A DNA stretch of 64,000 bases, from contig JBMNJT010000008.1 of NCBI GenBank assembly GCA_050951805.1, positions 128,001 through 192,000 on the forward strand, read 5' to 3'. This DNA comes from Bacillota bacterium. GTDB lineage: Bacteria; Bacillota; DTU025. A program made the position numbers and the translations under genes. This document shows positions 1,951-12,256 of this stretch, piece after piece (within the stretch, counting starts at the first letter, position 1; every line of letters begins with the position of its first letter). The notes below the pieces were generated by a model, which saw nothing but the letters and a program-made list of their open reading frames with translations, had not been told where the DNA came from and made no database searches.

Positions 1951-2385
1951 ATGCTGCGAAACAATCGCAGTGTTGCAAAGAAATATCACGGGGCCACAGT
2001 ATCTGCTCTGACCGGCTCCCAATGACCCTTCCCATCGGCCTCCCGTTTCTGCTGCCTTCTTATGGAGTATGCCCCATCGATCTGGGCAGGTGGCCTTTGC
2101 GAGGCTGGCGATTCTCTGATCTCCTGGAACTGGATCCTAAGTGGTGGGGGGTGCTCGAGTCCTCTCTGAGATGTGCTCAGATGAAAGGTATAACGTGTGA
2201 AATGTTGAACCAATATGAAGCGTCAGGTTACTGCTGAAGTAGGATGTCATCCGCGGGCGCGGGGGCTGGCCTGAACGTCCGCAGCGGGTTGGCATGCGCA
2301 ACAGAGCACGACGTTGATGCGTCTTCGCGACAAGACAGGTAGGGCAATCGTATACGTTCCTATTTCACAGAGGAGGTGGTTGGAC

Positions 2386-3342
2386 ATGCCCGACAAAGCG
2401 TCAGGACAGCCAGTCGTCCTGGAATACGTGAAGATGCGGTTGCCGGAGCTTTCCGCTCTTGACCGCGAATCCACAGTCTTCATAATAAGTGTGAGCCCAA
2501 TCGAGGTCCACGGACCCCATCTGCCGGTGGGCACGGACGTTTTCATCGCCGAGGAGCTGGCCGCGAGATACATCCGTGAGCTTTTTGCACGCCATCCCGA
2601 GCTTACATTCGTAACCCTACCCTCGCTATACTTGGGCTCAGACGCCCTTCCGGTGAAGGGATCGCTTTCGGTGCCTGCTCCCTATCTAGAGGGGGCCTTG
2701 TTTTCTTACGGCAAAGGCCTGGCGGCCCAGGGTTTTCGCTATCTTTTCGTGGCCGACAACCATGGCGGTCCTCGCCATCAGATGGCGATTGAAGCGGCGG
2801 CCCGGGCACTCTGGAAGAAGCACAAGTTTTACCTCATAGATCCGTTCAACATAGAGTTCCGCTACATGGTTGAGCACGACCCGGATTTCGTGAAGAGGAC
2901 CGGACTCGGGCCCGGCGTATGCGGAGATGATCCCGACAGCCATGCAGGGACAAATGAGACATCGCTGATGTTGGCATGTTGCGAGGAGCAAGTCGCTGGA
3001 GGATACCGCGAAGTTCCGGCCTCTCTGCCCCCGCCGCACACAGGAGGGGCATCATTCGTAGCCGGACTGGCCAAGATCGTAAGGTTTTTTGGCGGAGATG
3101 TGCTCTCTCGCGACCTGGAACACCTCGCGAACACGTTGGCCTGGGTAGGTGATCCCGACATGCTGCCATACATGGGCGATCCGAGCAAGGCCACGGTCGA
3201 GGCGGGGGAGGCCATGCTTGCTGCCAGAGTTGAAGTTGCGATGGAGCTATTCGAGCGCGCCCTTGCGAGCGGGGGTAAAGATCCGGTGCACCTGGAGCCG
3301 ATGCTTTGGGGCGTGAGAGCCATGAGAAAACTGCCAGAGTAG
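2386..3342 (+). CDS. Creatininase family amidohydrolase
   Basis: PIEVHGPHLPVGTD, DNHGG and DSHAGTNETS metal-ligand motifs; AGGAGGTG RBS before ATG 2386. Confidence 0.85.
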   Translation: MPDKASGQPVVLEYVKMRLPELSALDRESTVFIISVSPIEVHGPHLPVGTDVFIAEELAARYIRELFARHPELTFVTLPSLYLGSDALPVKGSLSVPAPYLEGALFSYGKGLAAQGFRYLFVADNHGGPRHQMAIEAAARALWKKHKFYLIDPFNIEFRYMVEHDPDFVKRTGLGPGVCGDDPDSHAGTNETSLMLACCEEQVAGGYREVPASLPPPHTGGASFVAGLAKIVRFFGGDVLSRDLEHLANTLAWVGDPDMLPYMGDPSKATVEAGEAMLAARVEVAMELFERALASGGKDPVHLEPMLWGVRAMRKLPE

Positions 3343-3567
3343 CAGAATGCGGGCGGATTATGCATCTGGCAGATCCGCTCGGCCGACATGGAAGACCGCT
3401 CTATCTTGCGATCATCCGTCAACTGGGCCGCAACGCGCCATGGGCTGTAACCGCCCATCCCTGCCTCGGAGGGTGCGTTCTCCGCATTGCGGTTATCATA
3501 AAAACATGCGGCCATAAGTTCAAATGACAGGCAAGAGATGGAATTTGACACATGGGAGAAGTAGATT

Positions 3568-6120
3568 ATGGAGATTCGTTTTTTGGGGGGCGCTGAGGAA
3601 GTTGGCGCCTCATGCATACTTGTCAAAACAGAATCGGGGAAGAACGTGCTCCTCGATGCAGGCGTCAGGGTGAGCGAAGAGGGGACGGAAATGCTCCCCA
3701 ACCTTGAGCCGCTCAACGACGTAGTTATCGATGCGATAATCCTGTCCCACGCCCATCTAGATCACAGTGGCGCCCTTCCGCTAGTGGCCAAACTTTCGCC
3801 CGGGGCATCCATATTCGCCACGACGGCAACGCGCGATTTGGCCACAGTCTTGCTGTACGATTCAGTCAAGGTTGCAGAATTCAGGGAAGGGCTGCAGCTC
3901 TTCGACGCAGACGATGCCCAGCAGGCCCTAGACAGGGTGGTCACATACGGGTTCGGGACTTCTTTTGAGGCAGTAGAGGGGATTCAGGCGGTGTTCCTCC
4001 AAGCAGGGCACATCCTCGGCGCTGCGGCGGTACTGCTTCAGACAGAAGAAGGGACGCTCCTTTACACTGGCGACTTTACCACATTTGAGCAGGAGACCGT
4101 AGGTATGCAGGCGTTCAGTGGAGCTCTCAAGCGCGGGGCCGATGTGGTGATCACCGAGGCCACCTATGGATCGAGGATTCACGCTCCGAGGTCTCAGGAG
4201 ATGCAAAGGCTGCTCGATACTATCGGCGAGACGCTGGACGCTGGCGGAAGGGCGCTTGTGCCTGCTTTTGCCGTGGGAAGGTCTCAGGAGATAATCTTGG
4301 CTCTCAGAAACTACATGCGGCGAACGAAGAGAAAATACCCTGTGTACGTTGATGGTCTGATACGAAACGTAAATACCGTTTTCGCTAGGAACCCGAATTA
4401 CCTGAAGCAAAGATACAAGAAAGAAGTCCTGCGGGGCCATGAGCTTTTTTACACGAATGGTATCGAAGCAGTGGGGAGCAAGTCCCAAAGGGACAAGATC
4501 CTCGCATCGAAAGATCCGTGTGTGATAATTGCGAGTTCAGGGATGCTCACAGGCGGAGTGTCGCCGATATACGCAGAGAGGATTCTCGAGGATGAGAAGA
4601 ATCTCTTGGCGATAGTGGGGTACCAGGATGAAGAATCGCCGGGAAGAAGATTGCTGGACTTGGCTGAGCTTCCAAAGAATGAACGGACGATACTTTTGAA
4701 CGAAAACGAATACCGGGTTAGGTGCAAGGTGGGGAAGTTCGGTCTTTCGGCCCATGCGGACTCGCTCGGGATCATCGCTTCAGTAAAGGCTTTAAGGCCC
4801 GACTTCGTCCTCCTCAACCATGGGAATGAGGAGTCTCTTGAAGCGCTCTCCCAAGCCCTGGCAGACGAATTGCCTGACACCCGCATAGAAGTGGCCGGCT
4901 CGGGTGGGGTCTACGAGTATGTTCCGGCGCCGGGCGGGGGAAAACGACGATACTCCTTGAAGCCGCAGGTGCGCAGGATAGCGTTGCACAAAGAGGAGCC
5001 GGTAGATCCGGAGGAGCTTTGGCAACACCTGTTCCAGACAGGGACTCTGGGAACGACGCTCACAGTTGCGGATTTGATGATGGTGTGGTACGGTCCCCGA
5101 GAGATCTCCGACGAAGAGAAACGGGCTTTCCGCAAGGAAGTCAGCGGGTCGCCGCGCTTCAGGTCCGCCTACACCAACCCCAATATTGTGTACGTGTTGA
5201 CTGAGGAAGAGTATGTGGACGCTGTTACGCCGAAGCCGATGGAACAGAATGAGGCGTGGGCACTGATTCAGGAAAGATTGTCGCCGTTTGGACTTCAGAA
5301 GGTGGGATTTGCTTCAGATGGAAGCGTGACGCTGTATTTTCCGACGCCGAAATATGCCGAGAGGTGCACAGACGAGATCGGAGAATTGGAGCGGGAGATA
5401 CTGCGCAGAATCGAAGTTGCGCCAAACTCCAATATGGAATTCCTGAAGACCAAGATCAAGACGGACTTGGCAGAGGAGTTCGGCATAAGGGTCAACCGCG
5501 ATCCGTCCTTCGGCGCACAATCGGTCACTGTGAAGGAGCCAGCAGGGTTGGCACAGCCAGGAATCCGAGGACGAACGTTGGGAGAATATGCAGAGGCGTT
5601 CGAGGAGGAGACAGGCTACAAATTGCTGTTTAGGGTTGAAGGACAGAGCCTTCTGGATCAGGTTGCCGCACGGCGCAGTCAGGACCCGTGGACGCCGGAG
5701 GGTGTACCGTCACACGGCGTGAGTGAACCTATGGAGCAGAATATGGCGAAGGGCATGATCGACGATGCTTTCGCGGGAGCGGTCAATCAACCGAAGGTCA
5801 GCATTTACAGGGATGAGGGACGGATGGCGCTTGCCTTCATAACCCCCCAGGTCGGGGAGAGATACAAGGAGATCCTGGACAAGCTCGAGGCGGCGACAGG
5901 ATGGAGACTGGAAATCCAGGAGAGCGCGAGAGTGAATGAGCTGGCCGACTTGGCCAGGGAGCTCCTGGCCGCCAACGGCCTAGGAGGGATGAAGGTTGGC
6001 GTTCATTCGGGCTATGCCGAGGCAAGGGGCCCTGTGGACGTTGACGAGGCGGTTGCCCAGAGGCTGAGCAAGGCCTACTCAGAGTTGACAGGTTACGAGC
6101 TGAGGTTCAGACGGACGTAG
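3568..6120 (+). CDS. MBL-fold beta-CASP ribonuclease (CPSF73/YSH1-like) with a long repeated C-terminal extension
   Basis: FLGGAEEVGASC, SHAHLDH, AGHILGA, YTGDF, EATYG, PAFAVGRSQE, ASSGML, GYQDEESPG, LSAHAD and NHG motifs all present; about 390 extra C-terminal residues. Confidence 0.9.
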   Translation: MEIRFLGGAEEVGASCILVKTESGKNVLLDAGVRVSEEGTEMLPNLEPLNDVVIDAIILSHAHLDHSGALPLVAKLSPGASIFATTATRDLATVLLYDSVKVAEFREGLQLFDADDAQQALDRVVTYGFGTSFEAVEGIQAVFLQAGHILGAAAVLLQTEEGTLLYTGDFTTFEQETVGMQAFSGALKRGADVVITEATYGSRIHAPRSQEMQRLLDTIGETLDAGGRALVPAFAVGRSQEIILALRNYMRRTKRKYPVYVDGLIRNVNTVFARNPNYLKQRYKKEVLRGHELFYTNGIEAVGSKSQRDKILASKDPCVIIASSGMLTGGVSPIYAERILEDEKNLLAIVGYQDEESPGRRLLDLAELPKNERTILLNENEYRVRCKVGKFGLSAHADSLGIIASVKALRPDFVLLNHGNEESLEALSQALADELPDTRIEVAGSGGVYEYVPAPGGGKRRYSLKPQVRRIALHKEEPVDPEELWQHLFQTGTLGTTLTVADLMMVWYGPREISDEEKRAFRKEVSGSPRFRSAYTNPNIVYVLTEEEYVDAVTPKPMEQNEAWALIQERLSPFGLQKVGFASDGSVTLYFPTPKYAERCTDEIGELEREILRRIEVAPNSNMEFLKTKIKTDLAEEFGIRVNRDPSFGAQSVTVKEPAGLAQPGIRGRTLGEYAEAFEEETGYKLLFRVEGQSLLDQVAARRSQDPWTPEGVPSHGVSEPMEQNMAKGMIDDAFAGAVNQPKVSIYRDEGRMALAFITPQVGERYKEILDKLEAATGWRLEIQESARVNELADLARELLAANGLGGMKVGVHSGYAEARGPVDVDEAVAQRLSKAYSELTGYELRFRRT

Positions 6121-6211
6121 AGGCTGTACCACTTCGTGGTTGACGGGTTTTGCCGGGGAAGCGAAACTACACGGGGGCATTACGTTGAAGGCTGTTTATG
6201 GGAGTGCATTA

Positions 6212-7810
6212 TTGACGAAACCTCGCCCATCTTGGACTTTGACAATGGCGTGGGCGTTGGTGGTTGCCGCATTGTCTGGGCATGCTGCAGCAGGGGAGAT
6301 AGGAGCTGAGCTTGTTCTGTCGCCTCAGGCAAGAGCCATAGTGGAGACAAACAGGCCGATTTGTCCTGGGCCGTCTGGTGACGACATCGAGAGAGAGGCC
6401 ATAGAGCTGTTGTATAACTACACAGGCCTGGAAGATGAGATTGATGTAGCCCAGATTTGGCGAAATCAAGGCCGATCGGTCAGAACCGGCCAATCGCACC
6501 AATGGCATATCTCTCCACATTATGCTGCGGAAGAAGTTGAACTGTTGTTCGAAGTATTGAAGTACGGATATGCTGGGTACGAATACTTCGGTGGCGATGA
6601 AGCCTTCGAAGCGGCAAAGGACGGGATACTCCGCGAGATAGGCGAATTTGCGGAGGAGATTCCCATGTGGCAATACATAGACATCATCGCCGCAAATCTC
6701 AGTTTCGTTCGGGATGGACATCTCTCAATTGGGGAGAGAAGAATCTGTGAATACCATCAATTCAGGGCAAGTCCGACTCACAGTTTTTGCATGGATAATG
6801 AGGGTCAATTCTGGAATGCCGATGGCGAGAGAATTCTATCCATAGATGGCCAGTCCCCGTCTGCATTCATGAAACCGTCTATAGATGAAGCCGGCGACAT
6901 AGTCTACCTGTTGGGGATGGTTCTGCCTGAGGGAAGCGGGGATGTAGCGCTCAAACTCGAATACGCAGACGGGTGCGATGAAATGGCCTGGCTTGTCCCT
7001 TTTTCACCCATGGTTCTTGACGGGCCTGTCTACGAGCTGTCCGAGGTTGGGGGCGTGCCGCTCATAACGTGCGGAGACTTTCGTGATCTTCCCGGCCAAC
7101 GGCGCGCCATTGCTCGATTCGCCGAGGATGCGGAGGGTTTTCGGGATGAAGACGTGATCATCTTGGACCTTAGGTCCAATCGCGGGGGAAGGTATGCCTA
7201 TGGTAGGGAATGGTGTCGCCGGTTGAGCGGTGGAGACGTTGGGCCGAGCACCTATTCCAGGCGACTCGTTACAGATGTGGCATTGGCATTGTTATCCAAC
7301 ACGTTGTCCGAATCAGATGATAACCTGTCTAGTCTCGAAAACCAGGATGATGCGCCTTGGATGAAGGACAGAAGCGAGGACCCCGAGTTGCCCGGGTGGA
7401 GCTATGCAGTCGTCGAACAGGAGGCCCGGGCAGGTAGGACGCCATTTGTTGTTGTGCTCCTCGATTCATACGTGGCCAGTGCAGCCGAAGTCTTCGTCAG
7501 AAGGTTACGATATTGCCAAAATACTGTCTTTATTGGGACGAATACGCGAGGTGCCGCGCTTTGCGGCAATACGGGGGTGATGGAGCTTCCTTATTCCGGG
7601 CTGAAGGTGAGCCTGCCTACTATGATCTGTTTTGACGGCGAGATGCAGAATATCGATGGATGTGGGTATTTTCCTGATTTCTGGGTGCATCCTGACTTTG
7701 TGATGGAGAGGGCTGTGAGGTTCATCGAGAAGCAGCTAGTGTCGGTGCAAGCCGATGGGGCCCTCGGGCAGACGAGCGAAGAAGAACCTGGAGGCATTAT
7801 GCGGCAATAA
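6212..7810 (+). CDS. Secreted S41 family peptidase (paralog 1)
   Basis: Signal-peptide-like N-terminus after TTG 6212 (GGGAG RBS); DGHL, IILDLRSNRGG, ASAAE (catalytic Ser), GTNTRG, GYFPD. Confidence 0.85.
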   Translation: MTKPRPSWTLTMAWALVVAALSGHAAAGEIGAELVLSPQARAIVETNRPICPGPSGDDIEREAIELLYNYTGLEDEIDVAQIWRNQGRSVRTGQSHQWHISPHYAAEEVELLFEVLKYGYAGYEYFGGDEAFEAAKDGILREIGEFAEEIPMWQYIDIIAANLSFVRDGHLSIGERRICEYHQFRASPTHSFCMDNEGQFWNADGERILSIDGQSPSAFMKPSIDEAGDIVYLLGMVLPEGSGDVALKLEYADGCDEMAWLVPFSPMVLDGPVYELSEVGGVPLITCGDFRDLPGQRRAIARFAEDAEGFRDEDVIILDLRSNRGGRYAYGREWCRRLSGGDVGPSTYSRRLVTDVALALLSNTLSESDDNLSSLENQDDAPWMKDRSEDPELPGWSYAVVEQEARAGRTPFVVVLLDSYVASAAEVFVRRLRYCQNTVFIGTNTRGAALCGNTGVMELPYSGLKVSLPTMICFDGEMQNIDGCGYFPDFWVHPDFVMERAVRFIEKQLVSVQADGALGQTSEEEPGGIMRQ

Positions 7811-7852: not shown

Positions 7853-9427
7853 ATGAGAAATCCCCTACACCTGCGCGAATCACGTCTATTCCAGGCTCTC
7901 ATGGCATTCTGCGTAATCGCCATTGTGACGCCTGTTCAACCTGTGTTAGCATCATCCAGGACGCGATTAGTCTTATCGCCGGAGGCGAGGGCTATCGTGG
8001 AGGCGAACAGGCCTGAGCTTTCCGAGGCATCTAGGGAGGATCTGTTAGCGCGTTTTTCAAGCATGCTGTATGAATACAGCGATTTCGAGGATGAGGCGTA
8101 CCCGAGCGCACTCAGGTGGGACACAGCTGCGGGCCGAGAGAGTGTCATGGAGGAATGGTCGATCAGTCCGGCAAGGGCTGTGCAAGAGGTAGACCTCTTG
8201 TTCCACGCACTGAAGTATGGTTATGCTGCCTATCAGTTCTTTGGTGGCGATGAAGTCTTCTGCGCGGCGCGGGAGAGGATGCTGGATGAGATAGGCCGAC
8301 ATTACCATGATATTCCGTTCTGGCAGTATTCCCAGATCATCATAGCTAACCTAAAGTTCATCCAGGATGGCCATTTTGCTTTTGGAAGCAGGACATTATG
8401 CGAATGGAGCACTTTCAGAGTCAGTCCGTATCTTCGGTTTTCACTGGATGAAGACGGCTTTTTCATTAACGATGGCGGCAAGCGCGTTGCTTCAGTCAGT
8501 GGCCAAGCTCCGTCTTCTTTTCTTAAACCGTCAATAGATGAAGATGGAAACATCGTCTACGTTCTTGGGATGCTCGTCCCGGAGCAACAGGTTGATTTGA
8601 TGTGTGAGATAGAATACGCAGACGGCAGCAGGGAGATTGCATGGCTGGTGCCAATCATCTCCATGGATTACGGCGGAGCGGTCTACGAGCTTGGAGAAAT
8701 AGAGGGTTTCCCCTTGGTGTCTTGTCGCAGCTTCGATCCTGATCATGATGAAGGGAAGGCTCTCAACAGGTTTGTGGAGGACGCGGAGAAGTTGCGACAA
8801 GAGGATGTTATCTTGCTTGACCTTAGGTCAAATCACGGGGGATCGACGATCTACGGCATGCTTTGGTGCCAAAGGTTGACGAAAGGGAACGTGGGCCCGT
8901 ACTTTTTTACAGCAGAGTTGGCGACTGACACCTCTATCGCTCTGCTCCTGAATGGGCTTTCGGAAAGGCTTGGGGAGGAGTTTTCTTCCGACCAGGCGGA
9001 GGCTTTGTGGAGATACTGGAAGAATGCCGAGGACCCAGATAGGCCCGGATGGCGTCGCATAGGCATTGAGCAGGGTGGGCATATCAGCGATGCTCCGTTC
9101 ATAGTAGCACTTGTGGATTCCAACGCCGGGAGCGCGACGGAGGCTTTTGTCCGTCGTCTGCGGAGCTTGGATAATGTTGTAATCATCGGAACTAACACCC
9201 GAGGCGCTTTGCTTTGCGGAAATCCCGGTATGCTTGTTCTGCCCTATTCAGGTTTCGAGGTGAGAATACCCACGATGTTCTGGCTCGACAGCGAGATGCA
9301 CAATTACGACGGCGTCGGGTATTCTCCGGACTTTTGGGTTCATCCAGACTATGCGTTGGAACGGGCCGTGAAGTTCATTCGCAGACATCTCGTTAGAGAA
9401 GGGGCCAGTGTCTCACTTGGCGGTTGA
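7853..9427 (+). CDS. Secreted S41 family peptidase (paralog 2)
   Basis: GAGGTGAGG RBS; signal peptide; DGHF, LLDLRSNHGG, GSATE, GTNTRG, GYSPDFWVHPD; colinear with paralog 1. Confidence 0.85.
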   Translation: MRNPLHLRESRLFQALMAFCVIAIVTPVQPVLASSRTRLVLSPEARAIVEANRPELSEASREDLLARFSSMLYEYSDFEDEAYPSALRWDTAAGRESVMEEWSISPARAVQEVDLLFHALKYGYAAYQFFGGDEVFCAARERMLDEIGRHYHDIPFWQYSQIIIANLKFIQDGHFAFGSRTLCEWSTFRVSPYLRFSLDEDGFFINDGGKRVASVSGQAPSSFLKPSIDEDGNIVYVLGMLVPEQQVDLMCEIEYADGSREIAWLVPIISMDYGGAVYELGEIEGFPLVSCRSFDPDHDEGKALNRFVEDAEKLRQEDVILLDLRSNHGGSTIYGMLWCQRLTKGNVGPYFFTAELATDTSIALLLNGLSERLGEEFSSDQAEALWRYWKNAEDPDRPGWRRIGIEQGGHISDAPFIVALVDSNAGSATEAFVRRLRSLDNVVIIGTNTRGALLCGNPGMLVLPYSGFEVRIPTMFWLDSEMHNYDGVGYSPDFWVHPDYALERAVKFIRRHLVREGASVSLGG

Positions 9428-11155: not shown

Positions 11156-12256
11156 TTAGGGATTCGCAATCGAGCACTGGGCCTTTGACCCTGACGGACG
11201 TTCGTACTTTCGCAGCTGATTGCCTGGGGCTGTCAGTCCCCTGTCTTCAAATCCAAGCATTTCGTAGTATGCGCAAAGAGTTGGGTTTCCTGCATCGCAT
11301 TCCAGTCTGACTAGCCGCCTGCCCTTGGAGGCTATATAAGAGGATGCCCACTCAAGGAGGGCTCGTCCGACGCCGGCGCCTGCCCACTCCTGCTTGACTC
11401 CGAAGCCATACACATACCCTGCTAAGCGGTCGCTGCCAGCATCCTCCCACGAGCAAGAATCGGCCCACTTGATCCAGAGGACTGCTGCGGGAGAACCACT
11501 GATGAAGCCGATGAAGTAATCGCAGTCTCGTATTTTTTCTGCTACATGTTGTTGGCCTTCTGCGGTGAAAAGCCAAAAGGGAACCCGCTTTCCGCGTTCC
11601 ACAACTCGCCGGCAACTGTCAAGAAGGACTCCATAGGCGTCGTGCATGTGTTTTGCGGTGGCTCGCATGATGCACATAGGGCCTGCTTTAGTCGGGATTT
11701 CACAGACATTAGAATAAGGCTTCAGCAAGCTCAAGTAGAATGTCTGTCCCGACTCGGCTTGGCCTAGCAACTCGAAGCCGCAATCTTGAGCGATATGGGC
11801 AATAGCGGAGCAGTTTTGGGATTTGTCGGGCCAGCCCACTCCGTAGGCGCATGTTGTGGCGCCGGCGCCTGTCACAATCTTCAGCTCAATTATGAACAGA
11901 TCATCGCCGGGCTTTGCAGGAGGTATCTCTGCGTCCCATATCCGGAGCCTTCCTCCTGGCGCAAGCACCCTGAAGATCTCCGAAAGGACCCGTGGGATCG
12001 ATTCCGGGGACATGTACATCAGGCTGAAAAAGCAAGTCGCCTCATCGAAGGATCCGTCCAAAAACTGCATGCTTCTCGCGTCCATCACTAGCCGGAGCGC
12101 GTCATTGGATGACTCCTCCAGCTCCTCCCTGAGGATATCGATGGCGACTACTTGTCTTCCGAGGACAGAGCCTATGATTCCCTCGCCGCCTCCGCCCACG
12201 TCCAGAACGAGACCTGGCGCGGTCAGCCCTGACAGGTTTATGGTATCGAAAGCCAT
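11156..12256 (-). CDS. Class I SAM methyltransferase fused to a C-terminal GNAT acetyltransferase
   Basis: N-term VLDVGGGGEG, MDARSMQFLDGSFD, EIFRVLAPGG; C-term FGVKQEWAGAGVGRALL and LCAYYEMLGF. Confidence 0.8.
   Translation of the reverse strand: MAFDTINLSGLTAPGLVLDVGGGGEGIIGSVLGRQVVAIDILREELEESSNDALRLVMDARSMQFLDGSFDEATCFFSLMYMSPESIPRVLSEIFRVLAPGGRLRIWDAEIPPAKPGDDLFIIELKIVTGAGATTCAYGVGWPDKSQNCSAIAHIAQDCGFELLGQAESGQTFYLSLLKPYSNVCEIPTKAGPMCIMRATAKHMHDAYGVLLDSCRRVVERGKRVPFWLFTAEGQQHVAEKIRDCDYFIGFISGSPAAVLWIKWADSCSWEDAGSDRLAGYVYGFGVKQEWAGAGVGRALLEWASSYIASKGRRLVRLECDAGNPTLCAYYEMLGFEDRGLTAPGNQLRKYERPSGSKAQCSIANP

Follow-up and report, generated by a model that had tools for sequence, protein, structure and literature searches.

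What does a bacterial CPSF-type nuclease do with a C-terminal tail of four repeated units? The question is raised by a gene at 3568..6120 on the forward strand of a 64,000-nucleotide (nt) stretch of DNA from a Bacillota bacterium (GenBank assembly GCA_050951805.1, contig JBMNJT010000008.1, positions 128,001 to 192,000; G000:C8:128001-192000 in our numbering). This whole stretch is called the window here, and its source genome comprises 2.75 Mb in 8 contigs and is 97% complete. CPSF73-type nucleases are central to RNA 3′-end formation and termination in eukaryotes and archaea; to our knowledge, their bacterial relatives have barely been studied. The gene defines a large, uncharacterised bacterial family in which a CPSF-type core is joined to a conserved module of ∼370 residues at a minimum of 555 genome loci. 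We give about an even chance to the explanation that the protein is a CPSF-type ribonuclease in an auxiliary role, with a winged helix and four degenerate KH-like units that serve to select or hold RNA. An initial annotation had described an intact beta-CASP nuclease followed by two repeats of two KH-like units each, and had read it as an inverted form of the archaeal termination factor aCPSF1/FttA. The gene and its repeats proved correct, the KH resemblance held for the fold, and a role in termination is unsupported. The features of the gene, in window coordinates, are as follows.

3568..6120, + strand: whole gene (P0001), one open frame from ATG, 850 codons plus stop
3554..3559, + strand: Shine-Dalgarno-like GGGAGA, 8 nt ahead of the ATG, read from the sequence itself
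3568..4887, + strand: metallo-beta-lactamase (MBL), beta-CASP and RMMBL core, residues 1-440, from Pfam, motifs and Foldseek
4888..5007, + strand: linker, residues 441-480, partly of low confidence (predicted local distance difference test score, pLDDT, 62-80 around 451-470), with long insertions in some relatives
5008..5226, + strand: winged-helix-like domain, residues 481-553, H-S-H-H-S-S plus a helix, with conserved L484, W485, W507, G509 and F531
5233..5427, + strand: unit 1, residues 556-620, alpha-beta-beta-alpha/alpha-beta, PMEQN start, helix 2 broken at 598-601
5428..5637, + strand: unit 2, residues 621-690, alpha-beta-beta-alpha-beta, a clade-specific loop with GIRG at 665-668, ending ETGYKLLF
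5638..5724, + strand: tether between the cassettes, residues 691-719, disordered (pLDDT below 50 at 692-718), of variable length in the family
5725..5928, + strand: unit 3, residues 720-787, alpha-beta-beta-alpha/alpha-beta, PMEQN start, conserved [VI]-G-x-[RK]-Y (762-766) where helix 2 breaks, ending ATGWRLEI
5929..6117, + strand: unit 4, residues 788-850, alpha-beta-beta-alpha-beta, ending LTGYELRF

An intact gene with a CPSF-type nuclease core

The gene is intact, as first annotated: its single frame encodes 850 amino acids (aa) with all catalytic motifs in place. Conservation extends over the full length of the gene in 16 aligned relatives and at least 555 genome loci. At the start codon the homologues agree, beginning identically with M-[KRE]-I-R-F-L-G-G in an alignment of relatives. 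Pfam recognises three domains in the protein, namely Lactamase_B (residues 12-171), Beta-Casp (240-362, E = 9.9e-27) and RMMBL (PF07521, 382-435, E = 1e-9), and none past residue 435. The RMMBL match scores 38.7 bits against a cut-off of 21.6, and this domain is found in 57/57 family members. MBL motifs 1-4, including HxHxDH, are all there (HAHLDH at 61-66, AGH at 146-148, TGD at 167-169), as are the beta-CASP motifs EATYG (197-201), SAHAD (394-398) and NHG (417-419), in which E197, H396 and H418 are conserved. Across 60 aligned members all of these motifs are invariant or nearly so, the catalytic residues H61, H63, D65, H66, H148 and D169 never falling below 90% conservation. His418 occupies beta-CASP motif C, where a histidine marks RNA-acting rather than DNA-acting beta-CASP enzymes. 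Residues 1-440 are predicted from these motifs to form a catalytically competent two-metal RNA nuclease, and by analogy with solved relatives its activity would be expected to be endonucleolytic RNA cutting and/or 5′-to-3′ degradation.

The closest solved chains by phmmer are aCPSF1 (192-212 bits), CPSF73 (197), FttA (194) and Cas14 (179), with TTHA0252 (171), IntS11 (163) and RNase J (≤33) further down; aCPSF1, CPSF73, FttA, Cas14 and TTHA0252 are all RNA nucleases. A full-length AlphaFold2 model (60 sequences, pLDDT 89.6, predicted template modelling score 0.62) places the core on aCPSF1 in Foldseek (3af5, E = 5e-42; root-mean-square deviation 2.3-2.4 Å, identity 29-30%), and in this search no solved chain spans the whole architecture. 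The matching NCBIfam models cover the core only: aCPSF1 at 319 bits (cut-off 580.2) and Cas14 at 307 bits (cut-off 800). Higher scores than those of aCPSF1 come from tail-less beta-CASP proteins of 456-463 aa encoded on long contigs (P0189, 291 bits; P0195 from Gemmatimonadetes, 277; P0203, 264), each of which is 37% identical to the core over 100% of its length, and from archaeal tail-less forms (Woesearchaeota, Altiarchaeota; 220-235 bits). Because tail-less enzymes score above aCPSF1, the core is best described as a CPSF-type RNase without special affinity to aCPSF1. The inverted aCPSF1/FttA proposed at first is partly supported: the KH-like array lies C-terminal to the nuclease, and the core scores higher against tail-less bacterial enzymes than against aCPSF1.

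A tail of four related units

Two AlphaFold2 runs, one on the tail alone (15 sequences, pLDDT 81.7) and the other on the full-length protein, agree on the layout of the tail. Its two cassettes open with PMEQN at residues 557 and 721 (nt 5236 and 5728), as the initial annotation had noticed, and align with each other at 27% identity (E = 5e-9). The two alpha-beta-beta-alpha-beta units that it had drawn in each repeat are likewise borne out by the models and by unit-against-unit hhalign over 92 sequences, which gives 95-99% for 5/6 pairs (units 3 and 4 score 18.7%); the winged helix, used as a control, scores 0.1-0.5%. These profile comparisons show descent of the four units from a single ancestral one. 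Units 1 and 3 have in common an E-Q-N at helix 1 and a helix 2 that is broken in the models (594-598/601-611 and 760-764/767-777), and helix 2 is continuous in units 2 and 4.

Conserved tail positions across 91 loci include E723-Q724-N725 in helix 1 of unit 3, F591, P594, K743, G763 and Y766. A T/G-aromatic turn ahead of the last strand is 87-98% conserved in units 2-4 (T682/G683, G778/W779, T841/G842); at the corresponding turn of unit 1, most members have T (80%) and W (86%), and the window's clade has I611 and R613 instead. The net charge of the units is low, with medians of -2 to +1. Conservation among aligned relatives is high, with no hypervariable region visible apart from the linkers. 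The close relatives P0010-P0020 carry long low-complexity insertions (A/G/E- and Q/P-rich) in the core-tail linker and the cassette tether. Located at columns ∼480-530 and ∼800-910 of the full-length alignment A1, these bring relatives to as many as 929 aa, and the window protein has the shortest version.

The KH-like character of the units is supported by the modelled topology and not by sequence profiles. The AlphaFold2 models support a type-II KH-like topology, alpha-beta-beta-alpha-alpha-beta with a three-stranded sheet, with the broken helix in units 1 and 3 and the continuous one in units 2 and 4. Structural neighbours of the units include the type-II KH domains of aCPSF1/FttA, uS3, Era, ERAL1, KhpB and NusA2. 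Per-unit structural alignment puts unit 3 on KH2 of aCPSF1/FttA, a domain whose limits are given as 76-144 in PMC11616081. Sequence searches gave no link to KH. Pfam at E ≤ 10 found no family in the 410-aa tail and only chance-level, non-KH matches in the separate cassettes (Imm27, 0.22; MLD, 0.16); NCBIfam left residues 441-850 without any match, and KH families are absent among the 25 most-matched Pfam families across 57 members, beyond which 17 further families matched one member each at most. A repeat-2 profile built from 85 sequences met no KH chain among PDB sequences, its one match being a protein-kinase-domain protein (E = 1.2), and the single tail sequence met adenylate kinase (0.069) and PEP5 (0.072), both judged to be chance. 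ESM Atlas returned solely a cluster of the family's own fragments for residues 476-850 (score 0.79). Profile comparison by hhalign with KH_2 of uS3 (10 sequences) gave 27% for unit 2, 11% for unit 1, 4% for unit 4 and 1.2% for unit 3, on a scale where the uS3-Era positive control reaches just 42%; against KH_2 of Era (12 sequences) the units scored at most 0.3%, a comparison underpowered by the same control. In these alignments the helix after the unit 3 break, the TG turn and the strand fall in register with the matching uS3 stretch. The tail module, which neither Pfam and NCBIfam nor the PDB sequence set contains, is a new and mobile repeat domain.

KH domains carry GxxG at the helix break. 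At the KH-equivalent place, this motif occurs at 1/91 loci in unit 1, 10/91 in unit 2 and 0/91 in each of units 3 and 4. The initial statement that GxxG is missing is accurate for the family but not for the window protein, which has one (GIRG, 665-668) in unit 2 only, inside the clade-specific loop. The helix break of unit 3 has a conserved [VI]-G-x-[RK]-Y in place of GxxG (G763 94%, Y766 92%), and unit 1 of many members has A-x-x-[RK]-[YF] at the equivalent place. Descent of the units from KH is plausible, and the predicted RNA binding by the tail is unproven.

In the explanation that we favour, the nuclease core would cut and/or degrade RNA, and the tail, a winged helix followed by four units of ∼65 residues in two cassettes on a flexible tether, would select or hold the RNA substrate. 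The units would be a degenerate KH array after loss of GxxG, and the protein would process or degrade RNA in an auxiliary capacity, next to RNase J, RNase Y and Rho. The gene, its domains and repeats, the fold class, the conservation and the distribution are established here; that the substrate is RNA, that the tail binds it and what the enzyme does in the cell are inferred. If the units are indeed degenerate KH domains, they would represent an RNA-binding fold that is losing GxxG yet staying conserved.

The tail may instead be a protein-protein module rather than an RNA binder, serving self-assembly or acting as an adaptor to a partner, for example RNA polymerase, the ribosome or a complex like the degradosome; we consider this main alternative possible, though on balance doubtful. 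Whole-array Foldseek ranks YscD (4alz, E = 8.3e-5, probability 1.00) and PrgH (5tcp, 1.4e-4) ahead of FttA (1.3e-3), aCPSF1 (1.6e-3) and NusA (3.3e-3), and the top matches of the tail are the ring repeats of YscD, PrgH and CdsD together with the BON repeats of OsmY and DolP. Unit 4 is nearest to the C-terminal domains of LarE (8.5) and FKBP26 (8.2), which fit it at least as well as KH. The neutral to acidic charge of the tail, a family without GxxG, and an array whose copy number varies (2-4 matched stretches, that is, extra copies, in members of 1000-1400 aa) also speak for assembly. There is precedent as well: according to PMC13069675, modules for dimerisation (as in CPSF73 and RNase J) or for docking on a complex (as in Cas14) are a common addition to beta-CASP cores, and a tail of this kind would resemble the C-terminal domains through which RNase J, CPSF73/IntS11 and Cas14 dimerise, oligomerise or are docked. 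However, KH domains from RNA-binding proteins match the units structurally just as well, fusions of the array to ParB_N suit nucleic-acid work better, and no conserved neighbour that might encode a partner turned up, the best non-self cluster covering 21/80 loci and being generic. A complex prediction with two copies of residues 476-850 (score 0.00, mark 0.42) gave no answer either way on self-association. Were the units assembly or adaptor domains, they would point to a partner of a bacterial RNase.

A patchy family in ordinary surroundings

Searched against 1.84 billion representatives, the tail profile matches 566 clusters at 50% identity with E ≤ 1e-3, of which 455 reach E ≤ 1e-10 and 229 reach E ≤ 1e-30; most of the listed matches are 814-870 aa long, with the tail beginning after residue ∼440. 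Genome loci were found with a pattern derived from alignment A1; relatives are encoded at 555/598 pattern matches, a lower bound for the number of loci. Among the carriers are the cultivable and partly industrial anaerobes Clostridium carboxidivorans, C. drakei, C. tyrobutyricum and Thermoanaerobacterium saccharolyticum, along with Tepidanaerobacter, Lachnospiraceae, Pseudobacteroides, Sericytochromatia, Latescibacterota and Vulcanimicrobiota. The family is tractable for research on RNA decay and termination in Firmicutes. Within the phylum of the window's source genome, the tail occurs in 27/401 sampled genomes (24/361 of good quality; 16/277 genera). The gene is widespread but patchy and therefore dispensable. 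A literature search, with subscription journals and preprint supplements outside its reach, met no paper that describes such an architecture.

The array also leads a life apart from the nuclease. Among 32 unusually long or short proteins scanned, 24 have beta-CASP and/or RMMBL and 8 do not, the latter including a TPR protein of 2208 aa; a C-terminal ParB_N, known from proteins that handle nucleic acids, is present in 3/32 (P0022, P0143, P0136). Since the array is found without the nuclease and in the company of ParB_N and TPR, it is a mobile module. The TPR protein, P0040, has its TPR around 1322-1444, four tail-profile stretches (best 1780-2051) and no nuclease domain. P0105, P0155 and P0136 carry the four-unit array on proteins of 420-500 aa without beta-CASP and have ParB_N-like ends; those of P0105 and P0155 lack a Pfam match, as Pfam scores P0136, P0143 and P0022 only. 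Many short tail-profile matches (148-408 aa) look like gene fragments that start inside the core or linker, and these were not counted as stand-alone. One genome has, in addition to its full-length gene, two adjoining open reading frames (ORFs) of 143 and 147 aa (G288:C26:35988-36643, - strand) that match units 3-4 (53% identity) and unit 2 (48%) of the tail; this pair may represent a further copy, either partial or stand-alone.

No neighbour is conserved across 80 loci, from which 712 ORFs were clustered all-against-all. Immediate neighbours lie on the same strand in 78/144 cases, and NCBIfam names for 53/144 neighbours, from 41 loci, are heterogeneous (transport, metabolic, housekeeping), a Snf2 helicase and an IS4 transposase each appearing once. 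Neither the clustering nor the 53 named neighbours connected the family to nusG, nusA or rpo. In the window itself, the flanking genes encode a solute-binding protein, a creatininase-family protein, two S41-type peptidases, a CPBP protease and a methyltransferase-GNAT fusion. The creatininase-family gene (PF02633, E = 6.5e-35; 2314-3342, + strand) lies 225 nt upstream on the same strand. Directly downstream are the tandem paralogues 6140-7810 and 7853-9427 (+ strand), of 556 and 524 aa, each matching Peptidase_S41 at E ∼6e-11 and each with a long N-terminal region without family match; a related ORF likewise follows the nuclease gene at a locus of the same genus (L002). The fusion, a single ORF at 11156-12256 (- strand), combines a class-I S-adenosylmethionine methyltransferase (residues 17-104) with a GNAT acetyltransferase (241-335).

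The gene is present at ≥99% identity on contigs assembled from RNA libraries (4 runs, 3 studies), and one such contig, of 4172 nt, covers it entirely. Such contigs are weak evidence of transcription, because libraries of this kind can contain DNA, and gaps in coverage in runs X4, X5 and X8 are not informative. A promoter scan of 3250-6400 returned 2 promoter-like sites against 1.1 expected, neither of them upstream of the nuclease gene on its strand, and a terminator scan of the same interval showed no terminator-like site after the gene. The only terminator-like site within this interval is a hairpin on the opposite strand at 3345-3331. An Rfam scan of window positions 3000-6500 gave no match at E ≤ 1.

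The patchy, cross-phylum spread suggests horizontal transfer and, together with the mobility of an array also joined to ParB_N and TPR proteins, brings to mind a single-gene conflict or defence nuclease, in which the winged helix and KH-like array would sense foreign nucleic acid or a signal and unleash the RNase. The nearest curated non-archaeal model is, moreover, that of the type VII CRISPR nuclease Cas14. We nonetheless hold this improbable. The Cas14 match misses its cut-off of 800 at 307 bits and is confined to the core. PADLOC found only a chance-level LmuA match (E = 0.0045) on the MBL part of the protein, none in the tail and none in three neighbouring proteins. The flanks examined are ordinary metabolic and housekeeping genes, with a lone Snf2 helicase and a lone IS4 transposase among 53 neighbours, and no cas-like gene is present among the six neighbouring window ORFs scanned, a scan that included no CRISPR repeat search. 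High conservation without a hypervariable region apart from the linkers likewise weighs against defence.

RNase J (631 bits) and RNase Y (799 bits) are encoded in the source genome alongside Rho, which has a strong match (E ≤ 1e-174) there and in 27/27 tail-positive sampled genomes. Replacement of Rho by this family was considered and rejected, since every sampled carrier has Rho. The termination role raised by the initial annotation, that of a bacterial FttA/aCPSF1 analogue cutting nascent RNA co-transcriptionally and helping to remove RNA polymerase while its KH-like array reads the transcript, is very unlikely, given that the protein fails the aCPSF1 model (319 against 580 bits), its core is nearer to tail-less beta-CASP enzymes, Rho is found in every sampled carrier, its spread over 16/277 genera is unlike that of a general termination factor, no nusG, nusA or rpo link appeared in the neighbourhoods examined and the array is without GxxG. 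A reading of the family as a bacterial counterpart of the ‘cut and chase’ factors of the FttA/CPSF73 type is just as unlikely; here the winged helix and degenerate KH array would take hold of transcripts, nascent or stalled, on RNA polymerase or the ribosome, and the nuclease would clear them alongside Rho. If true, Clostridia and several further phyla would have a second, hitherto unrecognised path of factor-dependent termination or rescue.

Comparison with known systems

In aCPSF1/FttA (TIGR03675; PDB 2ycb, 2xr1, 3af5, 9bct), two N-terminal KH domains precede the MBL fold, whereas here that fold starts at residue 2. The accessory domains of the present family are C-terminal and four in number, are preceded by a winged helix, and have neither GxxG nor a KH-profile match. 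The protein stays under the TIGR03675 cut-off (319 against 580.2 bits) and matches model positions 177-613, the core, only. Unlike aCPSF1/FttA, the family is bacterial and patchy and coexists with Rho, and its core is not specially close to the archaeal enzyme.

By sequence, the nearest cores are those of tail-less CPSF-like beta-CASP RNases, bacterial and archaeal, of the COG1236 type, such as Thermus TTHA0252 (2dkf/3iek), which share the same catalytic motifs. TTHA0252 matches the core at 171 bits and superimposes on it in Foldseek with a template modelling (TM) score of 0.90 on its own length. These enzymes stop at residue ∼430-465, without the winged helix and KH-like tail.

The tail itself invites comparison with two groups of proteins. 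The type-II KH domains of uS3, Era, KhpB and NusA have the GxxG that the family lacks, and the first helix of the pair is ∼4 residues shorter here than in those proteins. The ring-building repeats of type III secretion systems (YscD, PrgH, CdsD) and BON domains (OsmY, DolP) are also tandem alpha-beta-beta-alpha-beta units, but the YscD/PrgH-type matches have identities of 8-16% and low TM scores (0.15, 0.28). Ring-building and BON domains, furthermore, serve periplasmic or membrane-associated assembly, whereas the units described here sit behind a nuclease that starts at residue 2.

In overall plan, Cas14 of type VII CRISPR-Cas (NF045584; 8yhd, 8yhe) likewise combines a beta-CASP core with C-terminal accessory domains. 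Its model matches residues 1-432 of the protein through positions 1-425 of 612, missing the cut-off of 800 with 307 bits. In Cas14, according to PMC13069675, oligomerisation and docking on Cas7 are functions of the middle and C-terminal domains.

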